DNA of 64,000 bases, from NCBI GenBank assembly GCA_018897195.1, contig JAHILH010000005.1, positions 64,745 to 128,744 on the forward strand, in the 5' to 3' direction. A program made the position numbers and the translations under genes. Positions 1-60,905 of the stretch are shown piece by piece. This stretch comes from Patescibacteria group bacterium. Lineage in GTDB: Bacteria; Patescibacteriota; Patescibacteriia; Patescibacteriales; UBA12075. Within the stretch, counting starts at the first letter, position 1; the number at the start of each line of letters is the position of its first letter. The notes under the pieces are model-generated. The model was given only the letters and a program-made list of their open reading frames with translations, made no database searches and was not told the DNA's origin.

Positions 1-473
1 TTTTCACGAGCACCTAGCTTGGTCGAAGTTAAATCCATATCATCAAACAAACCCTTAAAATCATCTTCACTTGCTGTGCCTGCTGATGTTTTCTCAATGT
101 CATTGAGAACATTTTTAAGATCCTCCAAGATAAATGTGTTCTCACCTTTTATCTCACCCTTGCCCTTTTTAACCAGATAAGAAAAAAGCTCGGTTGGCTT
201 TAAGAAAAAACCGAGATGACCGATACAGCCAGTTTTAACATGTTCCAAGTAAGTCTTTCCATCCTTAGTATTTTCTTTTATTTCCGCAAATTTAAAATCC
301 TCACTCGCCAAAAGTTTTTCATCAACATAACGCTCCAACTTCTCCGATAGATACTTGTAAAAAATAAAACCAAGAATATAATTCTTGTATTCATCAGCAT
401 TCATCTTACCACGGAGCACATTTGCCACGCCCCACAGTTGCTTTTCAAGTAGTCTTTTTTGTTCTTCTGACAT
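1..473 (-). CDS. hsdM: Type I restriction-modification methyltransferase subunit HsdM, N-terminal part (gene continues past the left edge)
   Basis: Not in the ORF track because it is open at the window edge. Hand translation from the ATG at 473-471 gives MSEEQKRLLEKQLWGVANVLRGKMNADEYKNYILGFIFYKYLSEKLE..., which matches the HsdM N-terminal domain signature (LW..A..LRG....EYK.YILG.IFYKYLS). Confidence 0.75.
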   Translation of the reverse strand, partial: MSEEQKRLLEKQLWGVANVLRGKMNADEYKNYILGFIFYKYLSEKLERYVDEKLLASEDFKFAEIKENTKDGKTYLEHVKTGCIGHLGFFLKPTELFSYLVKKGKGEIKGENTFILEDLKNVLNDIEKTSAGTASEDDFKGLFDDMDLTSTKLGARE

Positions 474-693: not shown

Positions 694-1101
694 TTATACA
701 GAGGTCTTGCTTAGCAATACGGCATTAGTATCATAAGCATTCCAATAGAGATGGGTTGTAATAAGTACTAGCAGATCAAATCCCAAGGCTTCAAGTGAAA
801 ATAAATTAGTAGGATTGGTATATAAATCATAAAAACTATAGGCCATTAAAATTGGCATCGCACATAAAAAAAGCAAATTAAGCCATCGTCTCTTTGGTAA
901 TTTTTGAGCGACCATATAAGCAAGCATGGTTGATAATATTATAAACGATGACAATGACTCAATCTGTGCATCAAGACCATGTTGCTCAACGAGAGATAAT
1001 ATTAACAGAGATAATGATACAAGAACACCGCACGCTAAACACGAGGCAATAAAATAATAAGTTGTCCAAAAGCTTAATTCAGCTATTTTTTGTAGTTTCA
1101 T
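694..1101 (-). CDS. Hypothetical multi-pass membrane protein, paralog of 1120..1572
   Basis: ORF track. Mostly hydrophobic segments. The N-terminus MKLQKIAELSFW resembles MKLKKLWELNIW in the neighbour. A 26-nt 5' flank is 25/26 identical between the two genes (1096-1121 vs 1567-1592). Confidence 0.5.
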   Translation of the reverse strand: MKLQKIAELSFWTTYYFIASCLACGVLVSLSLLILSLVEQHGLDAQIESLSSFIILSTMLAYMVAQKLPKRRWLNLLFLCAMPILMAYSFYDLYTNPTNLFSLEALGFDLLVLITTHLYWNAYDTNAVLLSKTSV

Positions 1102-1119
1102 AATTTTTGTTTTAGCTAT

Positions 1120-1572
1120 TTAAATTTTAAATAAAAAGTCATCGCCATTTTCTATATATTGATATAACACAAAACCAATACCCAATAATACGGCAACACT
1201 ACTTATTGTAAGAATATTAAAACCAAGGTCAAAATAATAAACATAAGTAATAAAGTTAAACAAGATTACTGCCAAGGATATTGATAATACAAAGGCTATA
1301 CCAATAATTTTTCTAAACATTGGGGCTACTCGCAAACTAAGATACATGGCCAACGCACCTGATATACCTGGACCGAATAACTCTTTAAAGAAAATTCTAT
1401 TAAAATTCATGCCTTCCGTAATGAATAGATTTTGAATAAACATGAGAGCTGACGTCAATAAACCAATAACAAAAATACTAACAATAAAAACTACCACAAA
1501 CACTGGCAAAATGGCAATAAAGCGAAAAATTATTTTCCAAATATTTAATTCCCACAGTTTTTTTAATTTCAT
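1120..1572 (-). CDS. Hypothetical multi-pass membrane protein, paralog of 694..1101
   Basis: ORF track. Hydrophobic throughout. Shares its N-terminus and 5' flank with the neighbouring gene. Confidence 0.5.
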   Translation of the reverse strand: MKLKKLWELNIWKIIFRFIAILPVFVVVFIVSIFVIGLLTSALMFIQNLFITEGMNFNRIFFKELFGPGISGALAMYLSLRVAPMFRKIIGIAFVLSISLAVILFNFITYVYYFDLGFNILTISSVAVLLGIGFVLYQYIENGDDFLFKI

Positions 1573-1615
1573 AATTTTTGTTTTAGTTATTTGAATTAAT
1601 TTTATTATTTAATTA

Positions 1616-2161
1616 TCAGCTTTTTTTAATTTCATGATTTCGATTTAATGCAAATTTATTTACAAGAATGTAAAAAAATACAATTATCAAAAGCAACAAA
1701 AATTCATTTACTATTATATTGCCCCAGTTTTTTTTATATTCATACTCCACTCGCCAATTTTTCTCCCAAGGTTTATGAAGATATATAATATCGATATTAT
1801 TTACTGTTTTTAACAATATAGCCCCATATGATATATTATCAAAGTCGCTACATTCCTTGCTAATCTTTTGCTCCTCTAATTTCTGCATCTCCTTTGCCAT
1901 GTTATAACTATTTTTTCTAGGACTTCCACTTTCTTCAAGAAATTTTTCCCTAAAGAATTCTAGCATATATGAATATTTATATAATTTCTTTCCATTGTCG
2001 CAGGTAATATTTTCAAAATTATCAACGCTCTTAGCCATTTGTGTATATTTTTTAAATATATAGACAGTTCCTAATAAAAAAACAATGGCTAGCAATGCAA
2101 ATATCGACTTATTGATTATTTTATTTTTTTTCTTAATTTCTGTATTATCAAATATATACAT
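1616..2161 (-). CDS. Hypothetical membrane-anchored protein (N- and C-terminal hydrophobic segments)
   Basis: ORF track. Candidate TM segments are SIFALLAIVFLLGTVYIF and LLLLIIVFFYILV. No recognisable catalytic motif. Confidence 0.4.
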   Translation of the reverse strand: MYIFDNTEIKKKNKIINKSIFALLAIVFLLGTVYIFKKYTQMAKSVDNFENITCDNGKKLYKYSYMLEFFREKFLEESGSPRKNSYNMAKEMQKLEEQKISKECSDFDNISYGAILLKTVNNIDIIYLHKPWEKNWRVEYEYKKNWGNIIVNEFLLLLIIVFFYILVNKFALNRNHEIKKS

Positions 2162-2184
2162 GATTTTAATTTTATATATTTTTA

Positions 2185-2784
2185 TTATTTAGATTTTCTC
2201 CATCCAGCTTCAACCGCCTCATCTTCACCACAAAACCAACTCTCGCCCCTCAATTCATCAATTTTAGTTTTGCTATAATAATTGTCACCTATCAAATGGT
2301 AAATTTTTTCACCAGTCTTTGAAATGTTGCCCTTAATATTGCACCATGGCTTAAACCAAAAAACTTGAGCAGAAACAATTACAACCAAAACAAAAATACC
2401 AGCAAAAATATATTTCATTTTATTATTATAAAAAAAAGACCGTAATAAATCCGTATTACGGTTAGCCTGGCTTAATATTGGCAAAGATTCTTTTTCTATC
2501 TTTTTAACTACTCCATCAATTCGATAAATCTTATTTTCATATTTCACAATCTCAGCACCTATGATCGTATTGATTTTATATCTGTACTGTCGAATGTGAT
2601 CCTCGTCATAATCTTTCGCCCTATCTAGCTCGTCACCTATCTCAGAAATATTTGCCGATCCGTGTTTACACAAAAAAATTAGAACGCGAAAAGCATTGCC
2701 AGTTAAACAAAGCTCTTTGTCATTCTCGTCAACTATAGTTTTTAACACTTCATTTAGCGCAAAGTGCTTGTGCTTGTAGATCAT
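2185..2784 (-). CDS. ToxR/CadC-like membrane-anchored transcriptional regulator (N-terminal OmpR/PhoB-type winged helix, one TM, short extracytoplasmic C-terminal domain)
   Basis: The N-terminal stretch F.L.......LTGNAFRVLIFLCKHGSANISEIGDEL...IRQYRYKINTIIG..I.....YRI resembles trans_reg_C winged helices. A TM segment follows (YIFAGIFVLVVIVSAQVFWF). The C-terminal motif is CNIKGNIS..GEKIYH......Y..T.......WFC.EDEA.EAGWRKSK. Confidence 0.5.
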   Translation of the reverse strand: MIYKHKHFALNEVLKTIVDENDKELCLTGNAFRVLIFLCKHGSANISEIGDELDRAKDYDEDHIRQYRYKINTIIGAEIVKYENKIYRIDGVVKKIEKESLPILSQANRNTDLLRSFFYNNKMKYIFAGIFVLVVIVSAQVFWFKPWCNIKGNISKTGEKIYHLIGDNYYSKTKIDELRGESWFCGEDEAVEAGWRKSK

Positions 2785-2821
2785 TTATTGTGCATTATGT
2801 CGAGATAATTTTTGATAAAAA

Positions 2822-2989
2822 AACGGACACCCGACCTGCAAAAAAATACAATTGGTATCCGTGAAGATCCCGCATGCGTTTTTGGTCGGAGTGTCCGTTC
2901 CTGCGCGCATACGAAGAAATAATGCCAAAATGGCACTAATATTAAATCTTCACGATTATGAAATTGTATTTTTTTGCATTTTAATTATA
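2822..2989 (-). promoter_or_regulatory. Structured 5' leader of the ToxR-like gene: candidate terminator/antiterminator (riboswitch-like or attenuator) element with its own -10
   Basis: Three inverted-repeat pairs were read directly. IR-2: 2837-2853 tgcaaaaaaatacaatt pairs with 2962-2978 (17/17). IR-3: 2860-2868 cgtgaagat pairs with 2946-2954 (9/9). IR-1: 2822-2836 aacggacacccgacc pairs with 2884-2899 (one bulge). On the minus strand IR-1 is followed by a U7 run (2817-2823). A minus-strand TATAAT lies at 2989-2984. Confidence 0.4.
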
Positions 2990-3096
2990 CCATGACTACA
3001 AAAATTTACAATACACTTTGAGAGTTATTCATCACAATAACAAGACCAAAAAAATATTCATACCAATATCATTAAAAAACCCAGCAAATATACTAG

Positions 3097-3125
3097 TTGA
3101 CTTTCTATAAAATATGTGCTATAAT
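3097..3125 (+). promoter_or_regulatory. Strong sigma70-type promoter facing the recoded gene module
   Basis: TTGACT (3097-3102), a 17-nt spacer, then TATAAT (3120-3125) preceded by TGc (extended -10). Confidence 0.55.
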
Positions 3126-3200
3126 ATATAATATAAAATGATAGAATTCGCATCATATAGACTCAATTAAAAACATTTAGCATTAAATCTTATTTATCAA

Positions 3201-3410
3201 ATGAACAAACAGACAATTTCAAAATTTTGAACAGAGCACTCCAAGAACAGTTACCGTTCTGATTCTTACTTGTCCATCAACGATTGATCAATAACAAATC
3301 AAATTAATATACACATCCGATGATCCCCTCCCCGCGAGATTATGGATGTTTTTTTATATCCAAAAAATATCTTACCAGCAAATCCAACGAGGATACTGCA
3401 AATTAAATAA
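3201..3410 (+). CDS. Candidate small ORF, open only if three in-frame TGA codons are sense (weak call)
   Basis: Hand translation gives 69 codons with no TAA/TAG and TGA at 3228, 3285 and 3321. The product has no recognisable motif, and the ORF overlaps a weak hairpin plus T-run at 3313-3356. Confidence 0.2.
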
Positions 3411-3486
3411 ATTATAATTAATGGTTGGAGAATTTAAATATTTCCGACCACTGTTTTGCCACAAGCATAACTTGCAATAAAAATGT

Positions 3487-4050
3487 ATGTCCATGAAATT
3501 TAAACCGAAGTTTTTAATTATTCCTTTTCAAGTTTGTGAAAATGAAAATTTAAGAGCATCAGACAAACTTGTATATTGAATAATTCACTACTACAGCAAG
3601 ATGGGGAAGAAAAAATGCATCGCGTCAAATGAAAGTATTAGAGAGTTAGTCTGATTTAAAAACGAAAGAAATGTACAAGATGCTATTGTTCGTCTGGAGT
3701 CAGAATGATGGGTTGAGCGTACATTTAGGACGATCAGTAAATCTAGAAGAACTGGAATAATATGTTACGATTTTCAACAAATTGAAAAAATGAAAAAAAA
3801 CTTGATCGTGCTGGAGTGATCAATTAACCATCAGATCAGTAATAGTGATAAGGAAACAACTATATCTAAAGATATAGTTAGCGCCAATAAATTGTCGCTA
3901 GGTAATACAATTAATAATTGACCATTAACTAATAGATATAATGGTCAAGCTCTACACTGTTCCGAAAATTGCACCGAATTAATGAATAGCCAAATATCAT
4001 CTAGCGCGTTATACGATCTCCATGATCAATATAATAATTACAGTTATTAA
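3487..4050 (+). CDS. Winged-helix DNA-binding protein (phage/plasmid replication- or regulator-like), open only with five in-frame TGA read as sense (best fit Gly)
   Basis: Hand translation gives 188 codons with no TAA/TAG in very AT-rich DNA. TGA codons start at 3577, 3652, 3706, 3817 and 3919. The sequence ...FLIIPFQVCENENLRASDKLVY*IIHYYSKMGKKKCIASNESIRELV*FKNERNVQDAIVRLESE*WVERTF... places two of them at classic wHTH glycine positions. Ends with TAA at 4048-4050. Confidence 0.6.
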
Positions 4051-4189
4051 TATAGCTGCAAAAAGCGATTAAACAATCACACAGTAATCATAATTTCATA
4101 AGATGGCTAAAAAAAATAAGAACAGTCAAAAAATATAACTAATTATTTTACTATTTAACGACAAAAAATCGTTAAATTCAATTAACATT

Positions 4190-4570
4190 ATGCAAACTAT
4201 TGCAGAAAAAATTTGAGTTTTAACTCGAAGACACCAAGATTGGTCGAGTTATTTAGTATTAACTGAGTTCGTCAAAGACAAACAAATGACGGCAAAGAAA
4301 ATTAAAAAACTCTTTAACCGATTTGTAGATACAGAAGATTTTGACAAATCAGAAAAGAAATCCATATTAAGACATTTGTTCAACTTATCAAATGCCGTAT
4401 CAAAGGAAGATGAACATAGTGATCAAGGACAAATCCAACATCATAATAAGGAAATAAATCTGAATAAGCAAAATAATGAATATGCGTTACCAGTGACCAA
4501 TTTAAGACCACACATATCTGGGCGATTTTACCGCAAAAAAAATTCAAAATTGGTCGCAGGTGAAAAATAA
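4190..4570 (+). CDS. Hypothetical protein with an N-terminal HTH-like start, containing one in-frame TGA (extends track ORF 4286..4570 upstream)
   Basis: The frame is continuous from the ATG at 4190: MQTIAEKI*VLTRRHQDWSSYLVLTEFVKDKQ-MTAKKIKK.... TGA lies at 4214-4216 in an IAEKI[G]V context. An upstream in-frame TAA sits at 4157. Confidence 0.45.
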
Positions 4571-4696
4571 ATAACATCTTCGACCAAAGTCACCTTAATT
4601 GAATATACCGAGCTTAAATTGGTAATTTGGTATTAAAAAATGCACCTTTAAAAGAGGATTGCAATTAATAAATTTTAATCGTATGATGTTGATGTC

Positions 4697-4716
4697 ATTG
4701 TGGCAATTACCACAAT
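4697..4716. promoter_or_regulatory. Inverted repeat upstream of xis (possible operator)
   Basis: attgtgg-caatta-ccacaat, with 7-bp perfect arms, ends 24 nt upstream of the xis ATG. Confidence 0.3.
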
Positions 4717-4739
4717 CAATGTTGTACTTTAACAATTAA

Positions 4740-4937
4740 ATGAACAATTCAAAACACAACAAACTAATATCACCTAAAGAATTAGCGGATATCCTTGGCT
4801 TATCGCTCGCATCAATCTACAGATTAACCTGAGACAGACGAATACCTTTCTATCAGATTGGTTGAGTTCTAAGATTTAAGCAAGAGGATGTTGATAGTTA
4901 TCTAAGTGATACTAGAGTTGAAATGATGAGTCTATAA
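4740..4937 (+). CDS. xis: Excisionase / HTH_17-type DNA-binding protein with two in-frame TGA codons
   Basis: Hand translation: MNNSKHNKLISPKELADILGLSLASIYRLT*DRRIPFYQIG*VLRFKQEDVDSYLSDTRVEMMSL. This fits the excisionase-family pattern (L...E.A..LG.S..TIYR......IP....IG...RF...D...(W/Y)L). TGA codons at 4830 and 4863. TAA at 4935-4937 lies 5 nt before the int ATG. Confidence 0.65.
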
Positions 4938-4942
4938 ATTAT

Positions 4943-6085
4943 ATGAGTGCATACAAACGAAAAAACAAATGGTGGGTAGCGTTCATGATAGATGGTCATA
5001 GAATCAGACAATGCAGTCCTGATAACACCAAGGCTGGTGCGATAGTCTTTGAATCACAGCTAAGACAAAAAATAGCCAATGGGTCGCTAACGAGAGCGAA
5101 CAGTAAAGCTAAGTCCATGAGATACAAAGACTTTGTTCCAATGTGGCTAAAAGATTATGTGGAGGTGAATAGTAAGCCATCGGATATTGTCGCAAAGAAA
5201 ATGATTCTAAGAGTTCATTTACTGCCCTACTTTGGTGAAATGAAAATTGATCAAATTACCAATCGTATCATTGAGCAGTTCAAAGCCATACAGCAAAGAA
5301 ATAAAAAATCCCCTAAAACAATCAATAATCATTTAGGGGTATTGAGAAAATCTTTGGCAACTGCCGACGATTGGGGTCTACAGGTTACCATCCCAAAAAT
5401 AAAACCACTAAAAGTAATGCTTGCCGAAGTTAGCTTTCTAACAGTTGAAGAATGTGAAAATGTTTTACAATCAGCTGATGACATCTGGCATGATATGATT
5501 CTGTTGGTAATGAAAACTGGATTGCGTTTTGGTGAATTGGTTGCCCTAAACTGGCAGGATATCGATTTTGCAAATAAGCAAATAACCGTCTGTCGATCAA
5601 TCGTCAAGAACATTCCTCAAAACAGCACCAAGAGCAACAAGATTCGTCATGTGCCTTTTGGAAATGAGGTTGAACAAATGTTAATACTTCGCAAAAGTGC
5701 ATCAATCAATGAATATGTGTTTTCTAATAAACACGGTGAGTTTATGAAATCAGCCACTTGCAGAACTAATTTAATTAGAATCTGTAAGCAAGTCGGTGTA
5801 ACTAAAATTGGCTGGCATTTATTGAGGCATACATTCGCATCGCACCTATCGGAAAATAACATCTCACCAATTATCATTCAAAAGCTTCTTGGGCACAGCG
5901 ATATCAAGACAACAATGAGATATGCTCACCTAGGAAATGAAGTAACCAGAGAGGCGGTGAAGACGCTTGAAAGACCTATTATTTTAGAAGGTTGCCACAA
6001 TTTTGCCACAAAGGTAGATAATGACACAAAAACTGATAAAATAATAGAAAGATTTACTGCTAATATAAAACAAGAACAGGAATAA
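4943..6085 (+). CDS. int: Tyrosine recombinase / phage-type integrase
   Basis: ORF track, 380 aa. N-terminal SAM-like domain. Catalytic motifs TGLRFGEL (Arg), HLLRHTFASHL (H-x-x-R) and TTMRYAHL (Tyr). No in-frame TGA. Adjacent to a tRNA. Confidence 0.9.
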   Translation: MSAYKRKNKWWVAFMIDGHRIRQCSPDNTKAGAIVFESQLRQKIANGSLTRANSKAKSMRYKDFVPMWLKDYVEVNSKPSDIVAKKMILRVHLLPYFGEMKIDQITNRIIEQFKAIQQRNKKSPKTINNHLGVLRKSLATADDWGLQVTIPKIKPLKVMLAEVSFLTVEECENVLQSADDIWHDMILLVMKTGLRFGELVALNWQDIDFANKQITVCRSIVKNIPQNSTKSNKIRHVPFGNEVEQMLILRKSASINEYVFSNKHGEFMKSATCRTNLIRICKQVGVTKIGWHLLRHTFASHLSENNISPIIIQKLLGHSDIKTTMRYAHLGNEVTREAVKTLERPIILEGCHNFATKVDNDTKTDKIIERFTANIKQEQE

Positions 6086-6101
6086 AACCCTGCTCTTGTA
6101 C

Positions 6102-6192
6102 TGGCGGAGAAGGAGGGATTCGAACCCTCGGTCCGCTTTCACGGACAACGCTTTTCGAGAGCGTCGCCTTCAACCACTCGAGCCACTTCTCC
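6102..6192 (-). tRNA. tRNA-Ser (anticodon CGA), long variable arm, encoded CCA
   Basis: The reverse complement reads GGAGAAG-TG-GCTC..GAGTGGTTGAAGGCG-ACGCT-CTCGAAA-AGCGT-TGTCCGTGAAAGCGGACC-GAGGG-TTCGAAT-CCCTC-CTTCTCC-GCCA. It shows a 7-bp acceptor stem, the anticodon loop CT-CGA-AA, the T-loop TTCGAAT, and a class II variable arm. Confidence 0.9.
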
Positions 6193-6203
6193 AAATTTAT
6201 ATT

Positions 6204-6941
6204 TTATTTTTTTACCTTTTTCACAACCTCTTTCTTCTTCTCAACCATCAACCCCTTCACTTCCGCCTCACTCAAATATCGCCACTCTCCCACTTTCAAA
6301 TCACCCATCTCCAAACTCCCAATTTTTATCCTTGCCAATTCAAGCACATCACAACCTAGAACGCCGAACATTCTACGGATTTGTCTTTTCTTGCCCTGGG
6401 TTAAGATTATTTCAAACTTATCAGTGCCAACCGCTTTGATATTTTTGGCTTTAACAATGCCATCGCCATCACCGATGTCGACACCTTGCTTAAAATCGTT
6501 TTGAATAATACGTGCCTCAAGGCCTCGACTGACAATACTGACTAAATACTTTTTTTCATGCTCATATTTCGGATGCGTTATTTTCTGAGTTAAGGCGCCG
6601 TCGTTAGTCAACAAAACTAAGCCTTCGCTATTCTTATCTAAGCGACCAACCACAAATAAACGTTCTTTGGCGTTGACTAAGTCAAAAATATTTTTCTCAT
6701 CAACAAACTGGCGACTGGTACAGGTATAGCCTTTTGGTTTATTCAAAATAATATACACCAACTTTTCTTGTCTATAGATTTGCACACCATCAAGCAAAAC
6801 TTCGTCGTGTTCGTCGACGCGATCACCCAGTTTTGCCACCTTATCATTAATCATTACCAAACCATCCTTGATAAAATCTTCGGCCTTGCGACGTGAACAA
6901 ACTCCAGCTTCAGCGATAAATTTTTGTAATACTATTTTCAT
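6204..6941 (-). CDS. rRNA pseudouridine synthase, RsuA/RluB family (S4 domain + catalytic domain)
   Basis: N-terminal S4-like QKFIAEAGVCSRRKAEDFIKDGLVMINDK. Catalytic-Asp motif GRLDKNSEGLVLLTNDG. KKRQIRRM motif near the C-terminus. Confidence 0.85.
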   Translation of the reverse strand: MKIVLQKFIAEAGVCSRRKAEDFIKDGLVMINDKVAKLGDRVDEHDEVLLDGVQIYRQEKLVYIILNKPKGYTCTSRQFVDEKNIFDLVNAKERLFVVGRLDKNSEGLVLLTNDGALTQKITHPKYEHEKKYLVSIVSRGLEARIIQNDFKQGVDIGDGDGIVKAKNIKAVGTDKFEIILTQGKKRQIRRMFGVLGCDVLELARIKIGSLEMGDLKVGEWRYLSEAEVKGLMVEKKKEVVKKVKK

Positions 6942-51326: not shown

Positions 51327-54300
51327 TTACTTCATCTTCAACCAGCCAAAGGTATCTTCAAAAGTCTTGATAATGATTTGCAGTACGGATTCCTCCTTAG
51401 ATGGAGCAAGGACAGTGTAGTCTTTGGAATAAGAGACGTTGCCAGCCTCATCAATACTTCGTGCCTTGAAGGTATAAACAGTGGATGGCTTGAAGTCGGT
51501 GATGACAAGAACATGCTTACTAGTTAGACTACCACCATCTTTAGCAATGGTAAATTTATCATTACCAACACTAACCTCTTCAGTGGAGACTTTCTTCCCT
51601 GTACTACTGGCGGCATTATCAGTTGAATCTAGAGTTGGTAAATTTTTTGCGCCCCCTTCGGCATAAATAATCTCACTCGTTGATGGCTCATTAGTTTTCC
51701 AAGTAACCACCGCCTGGACGCTGTTTTGATCACCCTTGCTAATCAAGGCCATGTCGGTTTGCACGTATTCAATAATTGGAGCCTGGGTATCGATTAAGGT
51801 TGAGAATTCAAAACCCTTACTTTCGGTAGCTTGATCGTGTTTATCTTTACCCTTGATTTTAAAGGTATACCTAGTACCAGGAAACAAGTTAACTAATTTG
51901 ATCTCATGGTCCTTGGTAAAATCACCTGACCTCATTGAATCAGTCACCTTGGAGGTAATATTGGTATATTCAATTTCCGAAGTAGACTCATTAGTTGTTT
52001 TCCAAGTGACATTTGCTGATTTATCGGTGATTTTATTAATACTATAAGTAAGGACATCAAATGAAGTTAGTGTCGTGAAAGTGTAGTCATCAGAAGAGAT
52101 AACATCACCCTTTCGACTCGCCCCCTTGGCTTTAAAGTGATAAGTTTGACCAGACTTCAAATCACTCAATCTCAGGCTATGATTAACAACGGAGTTATTT
52201 GAATCTGCTTTAGCAGTTTGACCATAAGCCGGCGTGGAGCCATAATCTAATTCCGAAGTAGTTTCCGTATTAGAGAGCCAAGAAATTTCGATACTCGTAT
52301 TAGTTATATTAGACATTGAAACTTCAGAAACAAACGGGATACCGGTAGTCTCAAATGATTTTTGATCAGAAGCACCAATATTACCAAGAGCATCGACACT
52401 TTGAGCCACAAAAACATATTTGCGTCCCGGCGCTAAGTTGGAAATATTAACAGTGTGATCCGTAACCAGGGCGGAATAATTACCAACTTGCTCCGCGCTA
52501 TCACGGCCCATTGATTCGATGTAATAGGAAATAATACTATTAGACTTGCGATTTGTCTTCCAGGCGATAGTCACTGACTTCGCGGTAACATTGCTAATCT
52601 CAGGTCCGGCGCCAGAAATCATTGGCGGCTCACCAGTTTTTTGAATTGCTGCCCGAATATCTTCAGGATTAACCTTACCGGATGACAACAACTCATTAAT
52701 CATTTCCTGAATCTTGGTTAAAGTATTTTCTGCATCCTTCTTTACTTCTGCCGCAACATCTTTCTTAGCCTCTTCGCCGGCCGCCAACGTAGTCAAGGCA
52801 AAGTCTGGTGATGCAGACATGTTACCCCAAGAGTCAGCAGAAACCGCCGAGAAATGATAAGTAGTATTTGGAGAAAGTTTTTTCAAATAAATTACATGAT
52901 TCTTAATTCTTTTTAGATAACTCTGATAATCAGATTCGGCCGAATCATAATCAGACGACAAGCCATAACCGACCATTGAGCTCGATTCTTCATTTGTGCT
53001 CCAAACTATCTTAGCATAGACATCTCCTTGCTCAACTATTTTAACATTAGAAATAACCGGTGCCGTCTTATCGGTTTTATCAATAATTAAAGCGCCACCA
53101 CCGCTCTTACTGTTAACAAGATTTAGTTGACTTTGCAACTCATTAATTTTGTTTATTTTTTCTTGTAATTCAGCATCTGTATGCATTCCAGCGGTAGCAT
53201 TAGACAATTGCTCGCTCAAACTATTAATCTCAGCAATCCTTGCCTGCATTTCCACCTCAGTATAAGCTTTGTCCTGCAAACTTAATAATTGCAACTCAAG
53301 ACTATCAATTAAATTTTGTTTTTCTGCCAAATCATCACCCGTGTATCTAATAGCTAATGTCTTAAAACTTACTTCATTTGATGTAAAATTCTTATTACCA
53401 TCCTCTGAATCAATTGTTTTAGTTTTAATATAATAAGTAGTGCTAGCAATTAAATTAGTTAAATAATAACTATGGGTTCTTGTCGGTGTAAGAATCGTTA
53501 GTCCAGTACAAGTGTCCATATTGATACCGACCAAGGTTGAGTAACAAATTTTCGAAGTGGCCGTAGTGTTAGTATTTGGAATACTAACAATTGCCTCCGT
53601 ATCTGATTGAATCACTGTCGGATCGCCAGGATTAACCAACTCTTCATGAGTTACTTGCGTGGCTAGCGTGGTAAAAGAATATTCTGAACTGGTAGCCAGA
53701 TTGCCTCCACCATCTTGTGATTTAGCATAGTAATAATAAGTTGTACTCGCAGTTAGTCCACTTAATTTCAAAAAGTGTAAAGTGCTTAAGCGACTTGAGT
53801 TTTCAGAGACATACGGACCACCAGTTGTTTCGCCATAATGAACAACTGAGTCAGAAGTTTCATTTGTTTCCCAAAATATGGTAGCCGTAGTATCGGTAAT
53901 TATAGAAACTTGCGGACTTGTTTCAATCACTGGCACAGTCTGGTCTGTTGTTGAAAATGTATAGACTGGTGATTCTTGCGAGTAGCCATCTTTAACAGAT
54001 CGCACTTTATAATAATACACTGTACCGTCACTCAAGCTAGAAAGTGTAATAATGTGCGTTGTTGTTGCTGTAGCATCGGTTGAGAAATTACTACCAATAA
54101 AATTAGCATTGGTTGTATATTCAACTTGCGAAGTAGCCGCTTGATCCGTGTCCCAAGAAATAATAGTTGTCGTTGTGGCTGCACTGGCAAAAACATTAGT
54201 AATTTTTAAGTTACTGGTCTTGAGAGAATACTCCGCGCTGGTGGTTGCATTGCTATTCGTATCAAATGAAGTAACTCGGAAGTAATAATCAGTAAAGGCA

Positions 54301-57300
54301 TTTAAACCGGAGATATTAACACTATGTGTTCTGGTCATAATATCGTCACTAGTGCTAGCAAGATAATTTGCCGTGCTCGTACCCCATTCCACTATCGAAT
54401 TAGCTGTTTCGTCGGTCTGCCAATTAATTGTCGCACCATTACTACTGACATTGATTGCAATCACTCCGGAAATGACCGGTGCGATTAGATCGCCGGAAGT
54501 GAAATAATAAAGTGGCGATTGAGTAGTATAATTATCGGCGGTAGTGGAAATAACGCGATAATAATATTTTGTAGACTGTACCAATCCACTAATTTCTATT
54601 TCATGATTCTTAGTTGAGTCACTAGGATACATTGGCTCAAATGCACTAGTCAATGTCGGAAAAGCTGGATCGGAATTATATTCCACCTGTGAACTTGTAT
54701 TCTCATTTGTACTCCAAGTAATTTTCACAGCCGTCTCGCTAGTTGTGGAGGCAATTACATCAGTCAAGCTGATTCCCTCGGTTGTAAATTCACCCGTTGT
54801 CGTCGCTGATACATTGCCACTGGCATCAACCGAGAATAATTGATAATAATAGGTAGTATCCGATTTCAAATTTGCAAGATCAACCAGATGTGTAGTCGTT
54901 AATATATCATTACTAATACCAATGGCGTAATCATTTGTACTGGTGCCATAACTAAATATCGATCTTGAAACTTCATCGGCTTGCCAAGTAACCACCGCAC
55001 TTGTTCGTTTAACTTGACTATTGATATTAGTATTGCCTGGCGGAGTGGCATCACTGGTTGTCATATCGGAATAGTATTGACCAAGGTTGTTATCCTTGCC
55101 TGTGCCCGATTTAACATAAAAATAATATCTAGTACCTTGCTTTAAACTATTTAAAGTAACTGAATGGCTAGTTTCGGAATCATCCTGTCCCACCTCCACT
55201 GGTGCCGGACTAATCATATTAGGATCAAGAGAATAGCCAACAAACGAATTCGCTGGTATATCCGTCGCCCAGACAATCGTCATGCTATTATTGGTTTTGC
55301 CAGTGACAATAATAGTACTGGAAGCAATTTTCGGACCATCGAGTGTGGTAAAATGATAGGTCTCATCAAGACTAGAGCCCTCAGTGCCATCAGCACTTGT
55401 TGATTTAACCCGGAAATAATATTCAGTATTAGAGTCCAGACCGTCAATAACAACTCGATGTTTGCCCAAGCCATTATTATCATTCAACATGGTGGCAATA
55501 CCTTTGAAAGGCGCATTGGCAAAACCAGCAAGCACTGGCACTGTGGTTGTAGCAATATATTCCACACTAGAATTAGACAAGACACTAGTATTCCAAACAA
55601 TCTCAGCCTGAGTCGTTAAAATTTCTATAATCTCCACGCTAGTGATTACTGGCGGAACACCAACTGAAGTACCGCCGCCGCCCTCGCCAAAATCCTGGAT
55701 TCCGTTTGGCACCCCGTGCATGACGATATTGGTATCGCTCTTACTGGTGTAGTATGAATAATTACCAACACCATCTTCGAGATAAACACGATAATAATAA
55801 TGATAATCTTTTACAACATTACTATCGGTGAAAAAATTAACATGCCGATCCGTACTGATTCCAAGCGGCGCAAAATCACTATTTAGTGGCGTAAAATTTA
55901 CTCCTGGGTCAGTCGCATACTCGGCTCGTTCCACGTGATAAGCTTTGAATTCGCCAACATTAACTCCCCCCACTGGCATCACTGACTCTTTCCAGGCTAG
56001 ATACAGATGAACATCACTTGGCGTAATGTAAGTATTGGTTACATCTTGAACCATAATAGAGGTTACCCTCGGCGGAATTATTGCGTCATAAAAATTCTGA
56101 TCAAAATTATTCAAACTATCTTTATATTGAATATAAACCGCTGTTGTGCTGGCTATAACCTTAATAGTCGTACTCGCTCCACTTTTAATACCATTATCCA
56201 AAATCCATTGACCGGAATCAATATTAAGACCATCCGCTAGCAATAAACCATTTACAGTTGAAGAGGATAAAGAATAACGATAATACGTATCAGAAATATC
56301 CGTCGCCTTAAACGTAATTTTCACTTCATCAGCAGCCATGGCTCCCGTTTGACGCGCGTCAACTTTGAGAACATTATATGAATCAGAATCAGTATCCACG
56401 GTTGGCGCCTTAGCATCAACTGGGAAAATTAGTGAACTGGAAGTGCCGATACTATTAGCTGCCTCTTTATCACTGGCCACAATTTGAATTTTAAAATCAA
56501 TATCATTTTCATGATTATTAAATCCATCACCGGGATTCCAGATTAAGTTAAACGTGTGTGGCGTTGAGGTACTCACCTGATCAAGATAGTGCGTGCTAAC
56601 AGAGTCACTAAGTAATCCCTGAACTGCCGAGGTGGCAATATCCGTCCAAACACCGGAATCATAATATTTCAAACTTACTTCAACCCTATTACGCATCGCT
56701 CCACCCGCATACGAGCCTTGGTCCGTATCGACATCAACAACGCTGGCATTTATAACCACAGAGCCTGCCGGCGCCAAAATATCTCCCTGTGGAGTCGTGG
56801 TTGTTGCGTTAGCAGTAAGCTGTTCAGCTGTAACACTAGACACCGTCGGTGCAGCATTAATAACATATATCATATTAACCGCTGAAATTGATGGTGCGCT
56901 AACACCGTCGGAAATTAAAGTAATCTTATACTGAAACCATTGATCATTGTCACCAGTTTGAAAATTAACTGGCATAATATCTAATCCATCATAATTAATA
57001 AAATAGGAGTCACTGGTTCCGTCCGGACCTTCCCAGCTTGTCCAAGTCCCAGGCACAATTCCGGAATTTGGAGCAGTTCGAATTTGAAATTTAATATCCG
57101 TCCCCGCCGGCTTACTGCCCTGTGCCCAAGTAATCTTACTTAACATATTCGTCGCATCAGAAGAGTTATATGGTGATGAAATTAAAGAGGCAGCTGTGGG
57201 GAAATTAATAAAGCCAATCGTCACATCATTTAAAATAGGTGTCGCCGTTTCGTCTGTCGATGAAAAAGCCGCTTGATATTGAATGTAGCGATCGCCACTA

Positions 57301-60300
57301 TTAACACAACCCCCTGTCGATAAATTTTGACCGTTAACTATAGACGTACAAGTAGTCCAAGCTGTCGCTCCAGCACAATCACTGGTCGCACACGATCTAG
57401 CCTTCATGGCAATAGTCTGACCATTCGGTGTCGCATTCCAACCAAGATTGCCCCAAGCATTGTTTTTTTGGCCAGTGTTAATAAAACCAGAAGTAAAAAT
57501 ACCAGAAGTTTGATATAAAATATCTAATAATGACGAAGCAATAACGGAATTAAGGGTGAAAATTTGACCATAATCACTCAGTGATAGTGCAGTTTGACGA
57601 GATCCGTCGGCGGACATAGCCACAGATTTCCAATTTCGAGCTGAATCTTTCGCGGTCCAAGTATTGCCATAATCTGTGGAGATATAAATTTGACCATTGT
57701 CAACGACTGCCGTTTGACGAGAGCCGTCGGCGGACATAGCCACGGAAGACCAATTTCGAGCTGAATCTTTCGCGGTCCAAGTATTGCCATAATCTGTGGA
57801 GATATAAATCTGACTACTCAAAGCAGTAGCCGTTTGGCGAGAACCGTCGGCAGACATGGCCACGGAAGACCAATTTCGAGCTGAATCTTTCGCGGTCCAA
57901 GTATTGCCATAATCTGTGGAGATATATATTTGACCACCATTAACGACTGCCGTTTGGCGAGAACCGTCGGCAGACATGGCCACGGAAGACCAATTTCGAG
58001 CTGAATCTTTCGCGGTCCAAGTATTGCCATAATCTGTGGAGATATAAATCTGACTACTTAAAGCAGTAGCCGTTTGACGAGAACCGTCGGCAGACATGGC
58101 CACGGAAGACCAAGCATTGGTAGCAATTTTTTCTATCCAGTTTTTGCCGTAATCAGCCGAAACATAAACTTTGTCGTTTGCGGCAACTGCAGTTTGATAA
58201 GATCCATTAGCAGACATTGCGCTGGCTTGCCAAGACTTGCCACCCTTTTTTACTGCCCACGTATTTCCATAATCAGCAGAAAAGAGAATGTTTTTATTAA
58301 ACATACTGCCAACCGTAACTTGCGTCGCCCCATCTGACGTCATAGATATTGATGTTAAATAGCTAATATTTTTTGTCGTCCAGGTGTTGCCATAATCAGT
58401 TGATATTTGCATTTGTGCCCCATAGCCCACTACAGTTTGACGAGAGCCGTCGGCAGATATATCAACAGAACGCCAAGTTCCGGATAAACCTTTCGCTGTC
58501 CAAGTATTACCAAAATCAGTGGAGATATAAATTTGACCATTGTCAACGACTGCCGTTTGACGAGAGCCGTCGGCGGACATAGCCACAGATTTCCAATTTC
58601 GAGCTGAATCTTTCGCGGTCCAAGTATTGCCATAATCTGTGGAGATATAAATTTGGCCATTCAAGGCAGTAGCCGTTTGACGAGAGCCGTCGGCGGACAT
58701 GGCCACGGAAGACCAATTTCTAACGGAATTTTTCGCAATCCAGGTGTTGCCAAAATCGGTGGAAATATAGACTTGACCATTGTTAACTACGGCCGTTTGC
58801 TTGGCACCATCTGCCGACATAGCAATAGCCGACCATTTATTTTTTAAGCCTTTAGCCGTCCAGGTATTACCATAATCATCAGAAATATAAATTTTATCAT
58901 CATATGTTACCGCTGTTTGGTAGGACCCATCAGCTGACATTGCCACAGAAGTCCAATATGCATTGACACCTCTTTTAGCCCACGTATTACCAAAATCACT
59001 AGACGTATAAATCTGACTTCCATAAGCCACTGCGATTTGGCGAGAACCATCACCGGAAATTGCAACCGAGGTCCAGTCAAAATTTGGCTCATTTGAGCTC
59101 AAATTATTAGTATAATTGCTAGTTCTATCATAATCTCCCGAAAAATTATTAGATTTTAAAAACACCCGACCGCTTCCGCCGGAACCATTTTTTATATGAT
59201 CACCAATACCGCCCGCAACATTGACACTGCTCACTGCTAAATTTAGCGAATTACCGGCTAAATAAATTGAACCGCCACCACCACCTGCACCTGTGGCTAG
59301 CGTTGTTCCATTGGCCGACACAGAACTAGTCAAAGAAATAGCATCTGCCATTATGTAAATAACTCCTCCACCGTTGCCACCGCTTGTTACTGGCGTACCG
59401 GAATTAAAACCTCCAGCACTTCCCAAATAAAGCTTGGTCAGACTATCATCTCCATAAACACCTCCACCGGTATATAAGGCATCACCAACAATCTCGCCAA
59501 CATTGCTATGACTACCGCCACCAGCCAAATAACTATACACCGTCCAGCAATCAAATTCGTCACACTCGATATAACTCTTATAATAACTTCCGCCACCGCC
59601 TAAATTATTGAAGCCATCTATGCCGCCGCCTAAACCGCTATAAGATTCTCCCTGTCTCGTTGTTAAATCACCACCTCGATATCCCTTTCCAGACATTGTA
59701 ATACTCCCGCCACCCTGGACGTTCACCGCCCCATTGGCAAAAAAAGTTAAAGCACCACCATTAACACCATTCCAATTATTAGCTGTCAAGCTACCACCGG
59801 ACTGAATAGTAACATTGGAATACTGCGGAATCCGCTGTACAATTAATTTTTGATTAGTAGTCGCTGTTCCAATATTCGTATCACCATTTATCTTATTGCC
59901 GTAATATTTCTTCTTATTACTAGTAAAGGTAATAATATTAGTCGATATTGATTGTATGCTAAGAATCTCATAATTTCCGACATTATCGATATTAACGCCA
60001 TCCCCTTGAATATTTAAAAGCATTATTTTATCACCAATGGCATAACAACCAGCCGTCGGCGTAGCAGAAAGCGTAACCGTCGTCGTTGACACAGCAACAG
60101 CATTATAGCTAACACCATCAGCACAGACTCTTCCCCCATTGCCATTGCTATCAACATTTATATTTTTTGCACTTAAAATTGTCCATGATCCATCCACGCC
60201 ATTTCCACTTTGCCCTGGTAAAACTGATAATTGTACACTACTTGTCGCACCCACGGTCCCCACCGGCAAAACACTAACCTTACCAGAATCAGTATCAACA

Positions 60301-60803
60301 CCCGCTAAATTAAATCCAGTAGTCGTCGTACTATTATTTGTCTGAGTTATCGAATTAGTCGAAGATGCTAAAGAAATCTGCCCTGCCCCAGCCATAATTC
60401 CCGCCTCCTTTGATGAATATTTTGTCCAGCCACTTTGACTAAGTGCATGACTAGCTAAAGCCGCTGGATCTTCAGTCAACCACCCACCCTGACTAAAATC
60501 ATAAGACGCCGCAAACGAGCTCAGCACCGGTCCGGTCGACAGATTAATAATCAGCGCTGCAATCACCGTTGTCGTCACTACCGTGCCTAAACCAAGAGAA
60601 ATCTTGCGTAATTTATCCTGAAATTGGCGCAAAGCAGAATAGGAATCAAAGGTAATATCGCAATGAATCTTACCGCTCTCGTCTTTTTTATAAGATTCAA
60701 TCCGGTAATAATTATAGTGTGTTGATTTAAAAATAAGATGAAAATAATCTACCATCTTGATTTTAAGCTTATTCAGCTTAAGCATTAAACTCTCCTTAGA
60801 CAT
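51327..60803 (-). CDS. Giant (3158 aa) membrane-anchored surface protein: Gly-rich beta-helix-like region, ~13 BNR/Asp-box-like 40-aa propeller repeats, ~13 FN3/PAP-N-like modules, and an internal coiled coil
   Basis: Single uninterrupted ORF. TM segment LGTVVTTTVIAALIINL. Repeats of the form SxDxGxTW (STDYGNTWTAKD...). Modules of the form V.W.T.E..(T/S)S.V.YG....H.V.L.(G/N)L...T.YYY.V.S.D..GN....F.T. Confidence 0.85.
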   Translation of the reverse strand: MSKESLMLKLNKLKIKMVDYFHLIFKSTHYNYYRIESYKKDESGKIHCDITFDSYSALRQFQDKLRKISLGLGTVVTTTVIAALIINLSTGPVLSSFAASYDFSQGGWLTEDPAALASHALSQSGWTKYSSKEAGIMAGAGQISLASSTNSITQTNNSTTTTGFNLAGVDTDSGKVSVLPVGTVGATSSVQLSVLPGQSGNGVDGSWTILSAKNINVDSNGNGGRVCADGVSYNAVAVSTTTVTLSATPTAGCYAIGDKIMLLNIQGDGVNIDNVGNYEILSIQSISTNIITFTSNKKKYYGNKINGDTNIGTATTNQKLIVQRIPQYSNVTIQSGGSLTANNWNGVNGGALTFFANGAVNVQGGGSITMSGKGYRGGDLTTRQGESYSGLGGGIDGFNNLGGGGSYYKSYIECDEFDCWTVYSYLAGGGSHSNVGEIVGDALYTGGGVYGDDSLTKLYLGSAGGFNSGTPVTSGGNGGGVIYIMADAISLTSSVSANGTTLATGAGGGGGSIYLAGNSLNLAVSSVNVAGGIGDHIKNGSGGSGRVFLKSNNFSGDYDRTSNYTNNLSSNEPNFDWTSVAISGDGSRQIAVAYGSQIYTSSDFGNTWAKRGVNAYWTSVAMSADGSYQTAVTYDDKIYISDDYGNTWTAKGLKNKWSAIAMSADGAKQTAVVNNGQVYISTDFGNTWIAKNSVRNWSSVAMSADGSRQTATALNGQIYISTDYGNTWTAKDSARNWKSVAMSADGSRQTAVVDNGQIYISTDFGNTWTAKGLSGTWRSVDISADGSRQTVVGYGAQMQISTDYGNTWTTKNISYLTSISMTSDGATQVTVGSMFNKNILFSADYGNTWAVKKGGKSWQASAMSANGSYQTAVAANDKVYVSADYGKNWIEKIATNAWSSVAMSADGSRQTATALSSQIYISTDYGNTWTAKDSARNWSSVAMSADGSRQTAVVNGGQIYISTDYGNTWTAKDSARNWSSVAMSADGSRQTATALSSQIYISTDYGNTWTAKDSARNWSSVAMSADGSRQTAVVDNGQIYISTDYGNTWTAKDSARNWKSVAMSADGSRQTALSLSDYGQIFTLNSVIASSLLDILYQTSGIFTSGFINTGQKNNAWGNLGWNATPNGQTIAMKARSCATSDCAGATAWTTCTSIVNGQNLSTGGCVNSGDRYIQYQAAFSSTDETATPILNDVTIGFINFPTAASLISSPYNSSDATNMLSKITWAQGSKPAGTDIKFQIRTAPNSGIVPGTWTSWEGPDGTSDSYFINYDGLDIMPVNFQTGDNDQWFQYKITLISDGVSAPSISAVNMIYVINAAPTVSSVTAEQLTANATTTTPQGDILAPAGSVVINASVVDVDTDQGSYAGGAMRNRVEVSLKYYDSGVWTDIATSAVQGLLSDSVSTHYLDQVSTSTPHTFNLIWNPGDGFNNHENDIDFKIQIVASDKEAANSIGTSSSLIFPVDAKAPTVDTDSDSYNVLKVDARQTGAMAADEVKITFKATDISDTYYRYSLSSSTVNGLLLADGLNIDSGQWILDNGIKSGASTTIKVIASTTAVYIQYKDSLNNFDQNFYDAIIPPRVTSIMVQDVTNTYITPSDVHLYLAWKESVMPVGGVNVGEFKAYHVERAEYATDPGVNFTPLNSDFAPLGISTDRHVNFFTDSNVVKDYHYYYRVYLEDGVGNYSYYTSKSDTNIVMHGVPNGIQDFGEGGGGTSVGVPPVITSVEIIEILTTQAEIVWNTSVLSNSSVEYIATTTVPVLAGFANAPFKGIATMLNDNNGLGKHRVVIDGLDSNTEYYFRVKSTSADGTEGSSLDETYHFTTLDGPKIASSTIIVTGKTNNSMTIVWATDIPANSFVGYSLDPNMISPAPVEVGQDDSETSHSVTLNSLKQGTRYYFYVKSGTGKDNNLGQYYSDMTTSDATPPGNTNINSQVKRTSAVVTWQADEVSRSIFSYGTSTNDYAIGISNDILTTTHLVDLANLKSDTTYYYQLFSVDASGNVSATTTGEFTTEGISLTDVIASTTSETAVKITWSTNENTSSQVEYNSDPAFPTLTSAFEPMYPSDSTKNHEIEISGLVQSTKYYYRVISTTADNYTTQSPLYYFTSGDLIAPVISGVIAINVSSNGATINWQTDETANSIVEWGTSTANYLASTSDDIMTRTHSVNISGLNAFTDYYFRVTSFDTNSNATTSAEYSLKTSNLKITNVFASAATTTTIISWDTDQAATSQVEYTTNANFIGSNFSTDATATTTHIITLSSLSDGTVYYYKVRSVKDGYSQESPVYTFSTTDQTVPVIETSPQVSIITDTTATIFWETNETSDSVVHYGETTGGPYVSENSSRLSTLHFLKLSGLTASTTYYYYAKSQDGGGNLATSSEYSFTTLATQVTHEELVNPGDPTVIQSDTEAIVSIPNTNTTATSKICYSTLVGINMDTCTGLTILTPTRTHSYYLTNLIASTTYYIKTKTIDSEDGNKNFTSNEVSFKTLAIRYTGDDLAEKQNLIDSLELQLLSLQDKAYTEVEMQARIAEINSLSEQLSNATAGMHTDAELQEKINKINELQSQLNLVNSKSGGGALIIDKTDKTAPVISNVKIVEQGDVYAKIVWSTNEESSSMVGYGLSSDYDSAESDYQSYLKRIKNHVIYLKKLSPNTTYHFSAVSADSWGNMSASPDFALTTLAAGEEAKKDVAAEVKKDAENTLTKIQEMINELLSSGKVNPEDIRAAIQKTGEPPMISGAGPEISNVTAKSVTIAWKTNRKSNSIISYYIESMGRDSAEQVGNYSALVTDHTVNISNLAPGRKYVFVAQSVDALGNIGASDQKSFETTGIPFVSEVSMSNITNTSIEISWLSNTETTSELDYGSTPAYGQTAKADSNNSVVNHSLRLSDLKSGQTYHFKAKGASRKGDVISSDDYTFTTLTSFDVLTYSINKITDKSANVTWKTTNESTSEIEYTNITSKVTDSMRSGDFTKDHEIKLVNLFPGTRYTFKIKGKDKHDQATESKGFEFSTLIDTQAPIIEYVQTDMALISKGDQNSVQAVVTWKTNEPSTSEIIYAEGGAKNLPTLDSTDNAASSTGKKVSTEEVSVGNDKFTIAKDGGSLTSKHVLVITDFKPSTVYTFKARSIDEAGNVSYSKDYTVLAPSKEESVLQIIIKTFEDTFGWLKMK
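57560..59090 (-). repeat. In-frame 120-bp tandem repeats (40-aa BNR-like blades) inside the giant gene, several nearly identical
   Basis: Units start at about 57601, 57721, 57841, 57961 and 58561. They share an identical block of about 55 nt (caatttcgagctgaatctttcgcggtccaagtattgccataatctgtggagata). Alternating variants give a 240-bp super-repeat. Confidence 0.85.
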
Positions 60804-60905
60804 AGGAATTGTCGCACAATCACGCCATCATTGCTCACCTGGGGAGGAGTGCCAATTTGCGAGTTGTGAAGGTTATGTTATTTTATATAAATTTTAAATT
60901 ATATT

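Follow-up and report, generated by a model that had tools for sequence, protein, structure and literature searches.

We analysed a 64,000-nucleotide stretch of the genome of a Patescibacteria group bacterium (assembly GCA_018897195.1, contig JAHILH010000005.1, positions 64,745 to 128,744 of the forward strand), referred to here as the window. Next to a tRNA-Ser(CGA) gene it contains a gene for a tyrosine integrase (int), preceded on the same strand by a gene for a small Xis/AlpA-like protein (xis), by a gene that we call orfB and by a gene for a winged-helix protein (orfA). The reading frames of the last three, which we call the module, are interrupted by TGA codons, whereas that of int is not.

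All 15 glycine codons of int are GGN (three GGA, one GGC, three GGG and eight GGT) and its 380 codons include no TGA; the other two frames of the same DNA hold 13 and 19. The three upstream open reading frames (ORFs) together have nine GGN and eight TGA codons, so that TGA/(TGA+GGN) is 0/15 in int compared to 8/17 in the module (Fisher test, p=0.003). These counts reproduce exactly those of a preliminary description of this DNA, made from the letters alone, and the arrangement of xis that it gave was also confirmed: the xis ATG lies 203 nt before the int ATG, only 5 nt separate the xis stop codon from int, and translation in the standard code would terminate after 30 residues, at the TGA of codon 31. 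Judged by its codons, int is readable in the standard code and in a code with UGA as glycine (UGA=Gly) alike, as had been claimed.

The int product matches the Pfam families Phage_integrase (PF00589, E=1e-33) and Phage_int_SAM_3 (PF14659, E=6e-11) and the PHROG 1 integrase family (E=3e-62), and residues R195, K230, H292, R295, H318 and Y327 are invariant in an alignment of nine sequences (Int and eight homologues). These are the R-K-H-R-H/W-Y residues of tyrosine recombinases, which together with a SAM-like core-binding domain at its N-terminus place Int in that family. It has thousands of relatives in many phyla; those that are named all come from standard-code bacteria, mainly Patescibacteria. 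The named relatives of Int and of the orfB product include Patescibacteria, Parcubacteria, Falkowbacteria and Magasanikbacteria, and database searches returned none from Gracilibacteria or Absconditabacteria. In IMG/VR the closest relatives of Int are at most 42% identical and include no clearly recoded member; in one IMG/VR locus, L176 (L numbers denote the loci collected here), xis ends with a single TGA that is probably its stop codon. Among deposited phages, Streptococcus ‘satellite phage Javan’ integrases make up most of the best matches (∼27% identity), a weak resemblance that may reflect database content. An integrase identical over its full length is found on contig JAHIQA010000007.1 (196 kb; assembly GCA_018902835.1, Candidatus Parcubacteria bacterium) and on independent contigs of other sequencing runs.

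When TGA is read as glycine, the xis product matches Pfam HTH_17 (PF12728; E=3.5e-12; 46.8 bits, with a cut-off of 27) over residues 10–56. This region spans both TGA codons, and the match holds only if both are glycine. In ∼50 relatives an HTH_17 gene likewise lies directly upstream of int. Size, domain and position next to int all point to an excisionase or AlpA-like directionality factor. The orfA product matches PHROG 270, 391 and 428, all replication initiation families (E=6e-8 to 4e-6), and falls just under the cut-off for Pfam HTH_36 (E=3.8e-5); no match was found among 5.8 billion proteins or among deposited phages. For orfB there are 96 database relatives, named only as Patescibacteria or Parcubacteria apart from one metagenome-assembled genome (MAG) of Sphingobacteriia. 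Standard-code gene calling conceals these key genes, leaving orfA without a database relative and orfB on the database record only as a 94-amino-acid (94-aa) fragment.

The eight internal stops of the module are without exception TGA, never TAA or TAG, in DNA of ∼30% G+C. By chance, a frame of 126 codons without TAA or TAG is expected with p∼3e-4, and one of 187 codons was seen in none of 20,000 trials. When the window was scanned with TGA as a sense codon, only the block 3201/3487–4937 gained ORFs.

To identify the amino acid, we used the residues aligned to the TGA columns, ∼310 in four gene families. Glycine is by far the commonest (94), and tryptophan occurs only twice, which rules out the reading of TGA as tryptophan (code 4). 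Codon 42 of xis is TGA in all five recoded elements (that of the window and the four described below) and a GGN glycine codon in standard-code relatives such as L006, L168 and L169, while codon 31 is a GGN glycine codon in L167. The orfA homologue of L004 has TGA at codon 31 and GGN glycine codons at window codons 56 and 74 (‘lG.s’ and ‘L.e.G’ in the winged helix); codon 9 of orfB is TGA in L167 also. In a helix-turn-helix (HTH) protein that takes the place of orfA in L010 and L018, four of the six informative TGA sites align with GGN glycine codons. None of the recoded ORFs of the five elements contains a TAA, a TAG or a frameshift. Pairs of elements have 14 TGA sites in common, where 7.4 would be expected if TGA were placed at random among the glycine sites (P=0.009), although this excess may be due in part to common ancestry. 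On these alignments with GGN-encoded or standard-code homologues, in-frame TGA encodes glycine in the module genes, and the recoding proposed in the preliminary description stands. Selenocysteine is ruled out, since the aligned residue is glycine rather than cysteine and there is no downstream hairpin. No read-through signal or structure was found after the conserved xis TGA, and no conserved sequence context at it.

The host, a Parcubacteria bacterium, uses the standard code, with TGA as a stop codon. Between 6204 and 64000, 31 long ORFs (15,257 codons) contain 1064 GGN codons and no in-frame TGA, and they end in TAA (22), TAG (five) or TGA (four). Genes that end in TGA have no close back-up stop; read-through would add 23–36 codons. 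Neither a release-factor motif nor a release-factor gene was found in the 64-kb window, and neither tRNA-Gly(UCA) nor release factor 2 (RF2) within these 64 kb plus flanks. One ORF of the host region (51327–60827, minus strand) extends over 3166 aa, again with no in-frame TGA.

Recurrence of the coding split in related elements

Relatives were gathered by a DNA-level integrase search of metagenomes and genomes, to which the contexts of the nearest protein matches were added. Four further, diverged elements have the same layout and the same split. L004/L005, at a tRNA-Pro, has one TGA in orfA and one in xis; L167, at a tRNA-Ser(GCT), has two in orfB and one in xis; L010, at a tRNA-Glu, has four in the HTH protein gene, three in orfB and two in xis; and L018, also at a tRNA-Glu, has four, five and four, respectively, the last being all of the glycine-type codons of its xis. 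Each of the four has a TGA-free int. The five integrases, including that of the window, are 42–60% identical and lie at different tRNAs; L004 is closest to the window (56%). Taking the five elements together, TGA makes up 35/89 of the TGA and GGN codons of the modules, 0/92 of those of the integrases and 0/98 of those of other linked (cargo) genes; with these margins, five TGA-free integrases would arise with a probability of 2.5e-12. The lack of TGA in int is thus beyond expectation, both in the window and in its four relatives. Among ∼250 integrase loci, none has two or more TGA codons in the aligned integrase. A comparison of coding density under code 11 and code 25 across the loci was too noisy at higher G+C.

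The flank of L167 is demonstrably standard-code, with 84 GGN codons, no in-frame TGA and two of four genes ending in TGA, and the flank of L010 has 38 GGN codons and no TGA. At least two of the hosts (window and L167) have therefore been shown to use the standard code. In the int frame of L018, the first TGA (∼3271–3273) comes where the homologues end (373 aa, compared to 373–380 aa); no TAA or TAG follows before the contig end, and the frame would run across the tRNA-Glu. From its position, this TGA probably acts as the stop codon. If so, TGA would be a stop codon for int and a glycine codon for the upstream genes within one element.

Homologues of orfB lie upstream of xis and int in L004, L167, L010 and L018, and TGA-free ones in L020, L101, L008, L012 and L016. 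The gene before orfB is variable, encoding a REP_ORF2-G2P rolling-circle Rep in L006, the initiator-like winged-helix protein in the window and the HTH protein in L010 and L018. As far as gene content tells, the family is one of orfB–Xis–Int mini-elements of Patescibacteria, of which many members are standard-code; its named relatives point to standard-code Patescibacteria as its native hosts. A conserved TGA-free protein of 307–342 aa (motif ‘W.EDI.I.FFD ... RKPN.QW’) is encoded directly upstream of the recoded block in L004 (7572–8495) and L010 (2885–3910), and is absent from the window element.

We then compared relative synonymous codon usage (RSCU). That of int correlates with the module at r=0.82 and with the host at r=0.38; for 380-codon chunks of the host compared to the rest of the host, the mean is 0.74 and the 5th percentile 0.57. 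Thus int shares the codon usage of the module, and TGA alone sets it apart. G+C content at third codon positions (GC3) gives a different picture in the window, where int (0.355) is closer to the host (0.364–0.368) than to the module (0.283). In L010 and L018, however, GC3 is lower in int than in the module, and the absence of TGA from int is therefore not accounted for by base composition. The preliminary description had allowed that int might match its neighbours in codon usage and lack TGA merely within expectation; the first proved to be the case and the second did not, and the finding survives.

Borders, leader and cargo of the element

The genes described above appear to belong to a small integrative element, at about 694–6192, inserted at the 3′ end of the tRNA-Ser(CGA) gene in a Parcubacteria chromosome; its left end is not fixed. 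The 3′ end of the tRNA gene is 16 nt from the int stop codon. Relatives are placed likewise at tRNA-Pro, Glu, Leu, Ser, Gly and Asn genes. In the standard-code relatives L006, L009, L014 and L019, direct repeats of 21–30 bp of the tRNA 3′ end delimit elements of 4.1–7.5 kb. The features of the window element are listed in Table 1.

Table 1. Genes and other features of the integrative element, in window coordinates
Feature	Position	Strand	Remarks
Three small membrane-protein ORFs	1616–2161, 1120–1572, 694–1101	−	18 GGN, 0 TGA
Leftward 199-aa gene	2185–2784	−	wHTH-like (winged helix-turn-helix) N-terminus, one transmembrane segment, C-terminal domain; 12 GGN, 0 TGA
Structured leader	2811–2960	−	Long G+C-rich hairpin, then U-run, directly upstream of the first leftward gene
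Promoter-like site, leftward	2984–3011	−	10/12 consensus, TG before −10; consensus match only
Promoter-like site, rightward	3097–3125	+	TTGACT, 17 nt, TG-TATAAT; 11/12 consensus, extended −10; consensus match only
Possible extra recoded small ORF, uncertain	3201–3410	+	69 codons; TGA 3228, 3285, 3321
orfA, winged-helix, resembling the N-terminus of phage and plasmid replication initiators	3487–4050	+	187 codons; five TGA: 3577, 3652, 3706, 3817, 3919 (codons 31, 56, 74, 111, 145)
orfB	4190–4570	+	126 codons; TGA 4214–4216 (codon 9); core gene specific to this element family
xis, Xis/AlpA-like HTH_17	4740–4937	+	65 codons; ATG 4740, TAA 4935–4937; TGA 4830–4832 (codon 31), 4863–4865 (codon 42)
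int, tyrosine integrase	4943–6085	+	380 codons; ATG 4943, TAA 6083–6085
tRNA-Ser(CGA), integration site	6102–6192	−	ARAGORN; Rfam tRNA 49 bits

The junction with the host is present in an independent MEGAHIT contig (L003), which is identical to window 3025–6250 and spans int, the tRNA and 58 nt beyond. On the left, the element continues into TGA-free genes in three assemblies. Logan contigs from two runs (SRR11548472, SRR11548473; L002, L171, L254) break off symmetrically around the tRNA, at 6131 towards the element and at 6151 towards the host. Assuming a k of 31 for these assemblies, positions 6102–6180 (79 nt, the 3′-terminal part of the tRNA gene) would be a graph node shared with another context to the left and to the right; this could be an attR/attP copy, an empty site plus a variant, or a related strain with a near-identical tRNA. 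The tRNA core sequence had no match in IMG/VR.

Two divergent promoter-like sites lie left of the module, one facing orfA–orfB–xis–int and the other the leftward cargo. The possible extra small ORF, between the rightward site and orfA, is a frame without TAA or TAG in AT-rich DNA; it has no family match and no homologue was seen. Within the 350-nt leader before orfA, a hairpin (3315–3357, plus strand; ACATCC...GGATGT) is followed by T7 and, as read from the sequence, is a possible attenuator or terminator.

The structured leader of the leftward genes has counterparts in recoded and standard-code members alike (L010 2705–2795; L032 ∼1348–1440; L101 ∼4038–4130), in which sequence blocks and the stem are kept. 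RNAalifold predicts 35 pairs, eight of them with compensatory changes, and Rfam gave no match. The predicted fold resembles a terminator or attenuator; the element may use it as a leader with a regulatory role or as a small RNA. We considered whether its ‘CTTCACG’ motif could be a UCA anticodon loop, but this is ruled out as the motif is part of a long helix and not of a cloverleaf.

The 199-aa product of the first leftward gene matches PHROG 21287, ‘membrane associated protein’ (E=1e-8). L010, at a different tRNA, has a homologue in the corresponding place (1883–2728; 11 glycine codons, no TGA), which indicates that this gene travels with the element. The three small membrane-protein ORFs beyond it share its strand and tight spacing, with a G+C content of 0.26–0.34, and small membrane ORFs lie downstream of the leader in L101 as well; they are probably cargo of the same leftward operon, their membership of the element being inferred from this arrangement. 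Neither Pfam nor PHROG identified a structural phage gene in the window element, L004 or L010, and the other genes of L004 and L010 had no informative matches. A type I restriction–modification locus, all TGA-free, directly adjoins the leftward genes (window 1–473 and, to the left of the window, L170 10629–20329); its order is HsdM, HsdS preceded by an insertion of an AAA_21 ATPase and RloB, two further genes, and HsdR.

The genetic code as a possible gate

The two coding classes look selected rather than accidental. The explanation that we favour, and to which we give about an even chance, is that the genetic code gates the direction of recombination: the host would make Int, while Xis and the replication genes would need a UGA=Gly decoder supplied in trans. 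In a standard-code cell, host ribosomes would translate Int and the cargo, all UGA-free, and would stop early in the module, after 30 residues of Xis, eight of the orfB product and 30 of the orfA product. The element would then integrate and stay put, and excision and replication would occur only in a cell state in which UGA is read as glycine. Because the element carries no tRNA gene, the decoder would have to come from elsewhere, for example from a co-infecting recoded phage or another element. Both the use of the split as a switch and the existence of such a decoder are what we infer. The preliminary description had named a code-dependent switch as one of two readings; it fits the comparative data best, but no suppressor tRNA was found in the element or in the fetched sequences. 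A more specific form, in which the element is a code-gated satellite and the tRNA-Gly(UCA) of a recoded phage serves as the induction signal between two mobile elements, is tentative and rather less probable than the gate itself.

Several observations weigh against a code gate. ARAGORN, at default and at relaxed thresholds, found only host tRNAs and no suppressor tRNA in the element, and no tRNA(UCA) is present among the 124 tRNAs of all fetched loci, where the host is covered over 64 kb plus flanks. For the window element, no distal repeat of the attachment (att) site was found (no exact match of at least 12 nt, and none of at least 16/25 nt, in the window and 15 kb leftward), nor was one found within 10 kb for L004 or within 6 kb for L010; as no such repeat was found, the recoded copies may be unable to excise at all. 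Every element-bearing contig represents the integrated form, and there was no excised form in the fetched DNA. A single TGA lies inside the aligned integrase region at 13 distant loci, and a search based on the integrase undersamples integrases that contain TGA, which weakens any claim that there are none but cannot create the contrast within an element. Finally, the current literature places UGA=Gly phages and prophages in code-25 hosts only (PMC10746230; bioRxiv 10.1101/2021.08.26.457843).

Some of these points would suit an element with two kinds of host, moving between code-25 bacteria in the candidate phyla radiation (CPR) and standard-code Patescibacteria. Its UGA-free int would work on arrival in either cell, Xis and the replication genes would be used only in code-25 hosts, and the standard-code copies would be dead ends. 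UGA=Gly is the code of Gracilibacteria and Absconditabacteria, groundwater neighbours of Parcubacteria (PMC10746230; bioRxiv 10.1101/2021.08.26.457843), and it has already been proposed that TGA-avoiding phages might work in hosts of both codes (PMC10746230). That the searches found no suppressor agrees with this explanation, as does the distal att repeat, not found in three recoded copies and present in standard-code relatives. However, dead-end integrations give selection no means of keeping int and cargo UGA-free. Moreover, no relative of int (∼250 loci) or orfB (96 proteins) lies in a code-25 genome or is so named, albeit in a biased sample, and all recoded copies with informative flanks are in TGA-free or standard-code contexts. 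We consider a two-host element unlikely.

In its plain form, the other reading of the preliminary description, an immigrant from a UGA=Gly lineage trapped by the code of its new host, is disfavoured. In its favour, neither a distal att repeat nor a suppressor was found. Yet an element that had evolved under code 25 should have TGA in int and cargo, where 0/190 glycine codons are TGA; the named relatives of int and orfB all come from standard-code bacteria, and at least two of the hosts are standard-code. In addition, int shares the codon usage of the module and is TGA-free in five diverged elements in standard-code hosts.

Alternatively, the split could be history without function, if an initiator–orfB–xis module that had evolved under code 25 was joined to a resident int and cargo. 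A neighbour-joining tree places the five recoded Xis proteins together and their integrases in two clades, each mixed with standard-code relatives, as such a mosaic would predict, and GC3 of the window int is also closer to the host than to the module. The tree, however, is built on ∼60 residues without support values, and the identities are ambiguous: Xis of L010 is 58% identical to that of L004 (recoded) and 61% to that of L020 (standard-code). The codon usage of int resembles that of the module and not that of the host, and the GC3 difference is reversed in L010 and L018. A mosaic would also need a junction within the few bases between xis and int (5 nt in the window) in five separate elements, and the combination of orfB, Xis and Int is also found in standard-code relatives. 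A mosaic origin therefore seems improbable to us.

A lower probability still is given to leaky termination, in which a low level of natural UGA read-through would make attenuators of the TGAs, so that Xis and the replication proteins stayed very scarce. The modules of L004 and L167, with only one to three TGAs mostly at window positions, do look as if they had a conserved attenuator codon. With five TGAs in orfA, all four glycine-type codons of xis in L018 and 13 TGAs in the L018 module, though, the yield would be effectively nothing. Natural UGA read-through inserts mainly tryptophan, and the residue at the TGA positions is glycine. The shared TGA also has no conserved context or downstream structure, and host genes that end in TGA have no near back-up stop (extensions of 23–36 codons).

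An artefact is very improbable: although the breaks in the Logan contigs at 6131 and 6151 make the tRNA a branching node in those assemblies, as would be expected of a chimera of a code-25 element and a Parcubacteria chromosome joined through the tRNA, we reject both this and decay into pseudogenes because the stops are all TGA at glycine-type positions in ORFs otherwise intact in five diverged elements, the int–tRNA–host junction is present in the 196-kb MAG contig and in the independent MEGAHIT contig, the left side runs into TGA-free genes in three assemblies, and elements of this architecture are seen again at other tRNAs, with standard-code flanks.

Should the split have a function, as the code gate would have it, the direction of recombination is controllable purely by the genetic code, and a UGA=Gly decoder circulates among standard-code Patescibacteria. 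Int, xis, the att sites and the presence or absence of one tRNA would then make up a testable system for code-dependent regulation and for the spread or origin of code 25. The code-gated satellite, if real, would imply that CPR bacteria other than Gracilibacteria and Absconditabacteria decode UGA as glycine, if only transiently. Codon reassignment is usually seen as a barrier to gene exchange, and a timing role has also been proposed for it in gut phages. The setting here would be new, with UGA=Gly, a host from the poorly understood CPR bacteria, the smallest possible element, a gate on the excisionase itself and a decoder that is not on board.

Comparison with known systems

The nearest precedent is provided by prophages of two clades described by Borges et al., ‘Garnet’, in which TAG is reassigned to Gln, and ‘Topaz’, in which TGA is reassigned to Trp; their integrases avoid the recoded stop, and a lysis–lysogeny switch was proposed for them (bioRxiv 10.1101/2021.08.26.457843). 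As in the window element, these are tRNA-adjacent in a standard-code host, with an integrase that avoids the reassigned stop and other genes that are recoded. There are several differences. The reassignment in the window is TGA-to-Gly, which Borges et al. assign to phages of code-25 hosts only, and the host is a CPR bacterium (Parcubacteria) rather than a gut Firmicute or Bacteroidete. The window element is a few kb long and, unlike the prophages, has no structural genes, suppressor tRNA, release factor or aminoacyl-tRNA synthetase gene; its recoding is limited to a contiguous block of three or four genes that includes the excisionase.

The code-25 phages and prophages of Gracilibacteria and Absconditabacteria (Liu et al. 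2023, PMC10746230) are similar in using TGA as a glycine codon and in being associated with CPR bacteria. Those elements share the code of their host and have dense in-frame TGA (∼90% of genes of code-25 phages contain it; bioRxiv 10.1101/2021.08.26.457843), whereas here TGA is a stop codon in the host and is absent from the frames of int and the cargo.

Standard-code sister elements from Patescibacteria and other MAGs (L006, L009, L014, L019, L020, L101) have the same orfB–Xis–integrase core at a tRNA 3′ end, with a variable initiator upstream (a Rep in L006), and L032 and L101 share the leader hairpin with the window. They are free of in-frame TGA, and four of them have the direct repeats that were not found for the window element.

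Satellites of the phage-inducible chromosomal island (PICI) and phage-inducible chromosomal minimalist island (PICMI) type, which depend on a helper, are likewise small tRNA-adjacent islands with int, an AlpA/Xis-like gene and a replication initiator. The resemblance lies in the int–AlpA/Xis–initiator layout and the small size only; no packaging or helper-interference genes were recognised in the window element.

Lastly, in control of the lambda type, Int alone integrates, Int together with a small HTH directionality factor excises, and xis lies just upstream of int. The window element has the same gene order, but under a code gate it would be the genetic code, rather than transcription or RNA decay, that holds back its directionality factor.

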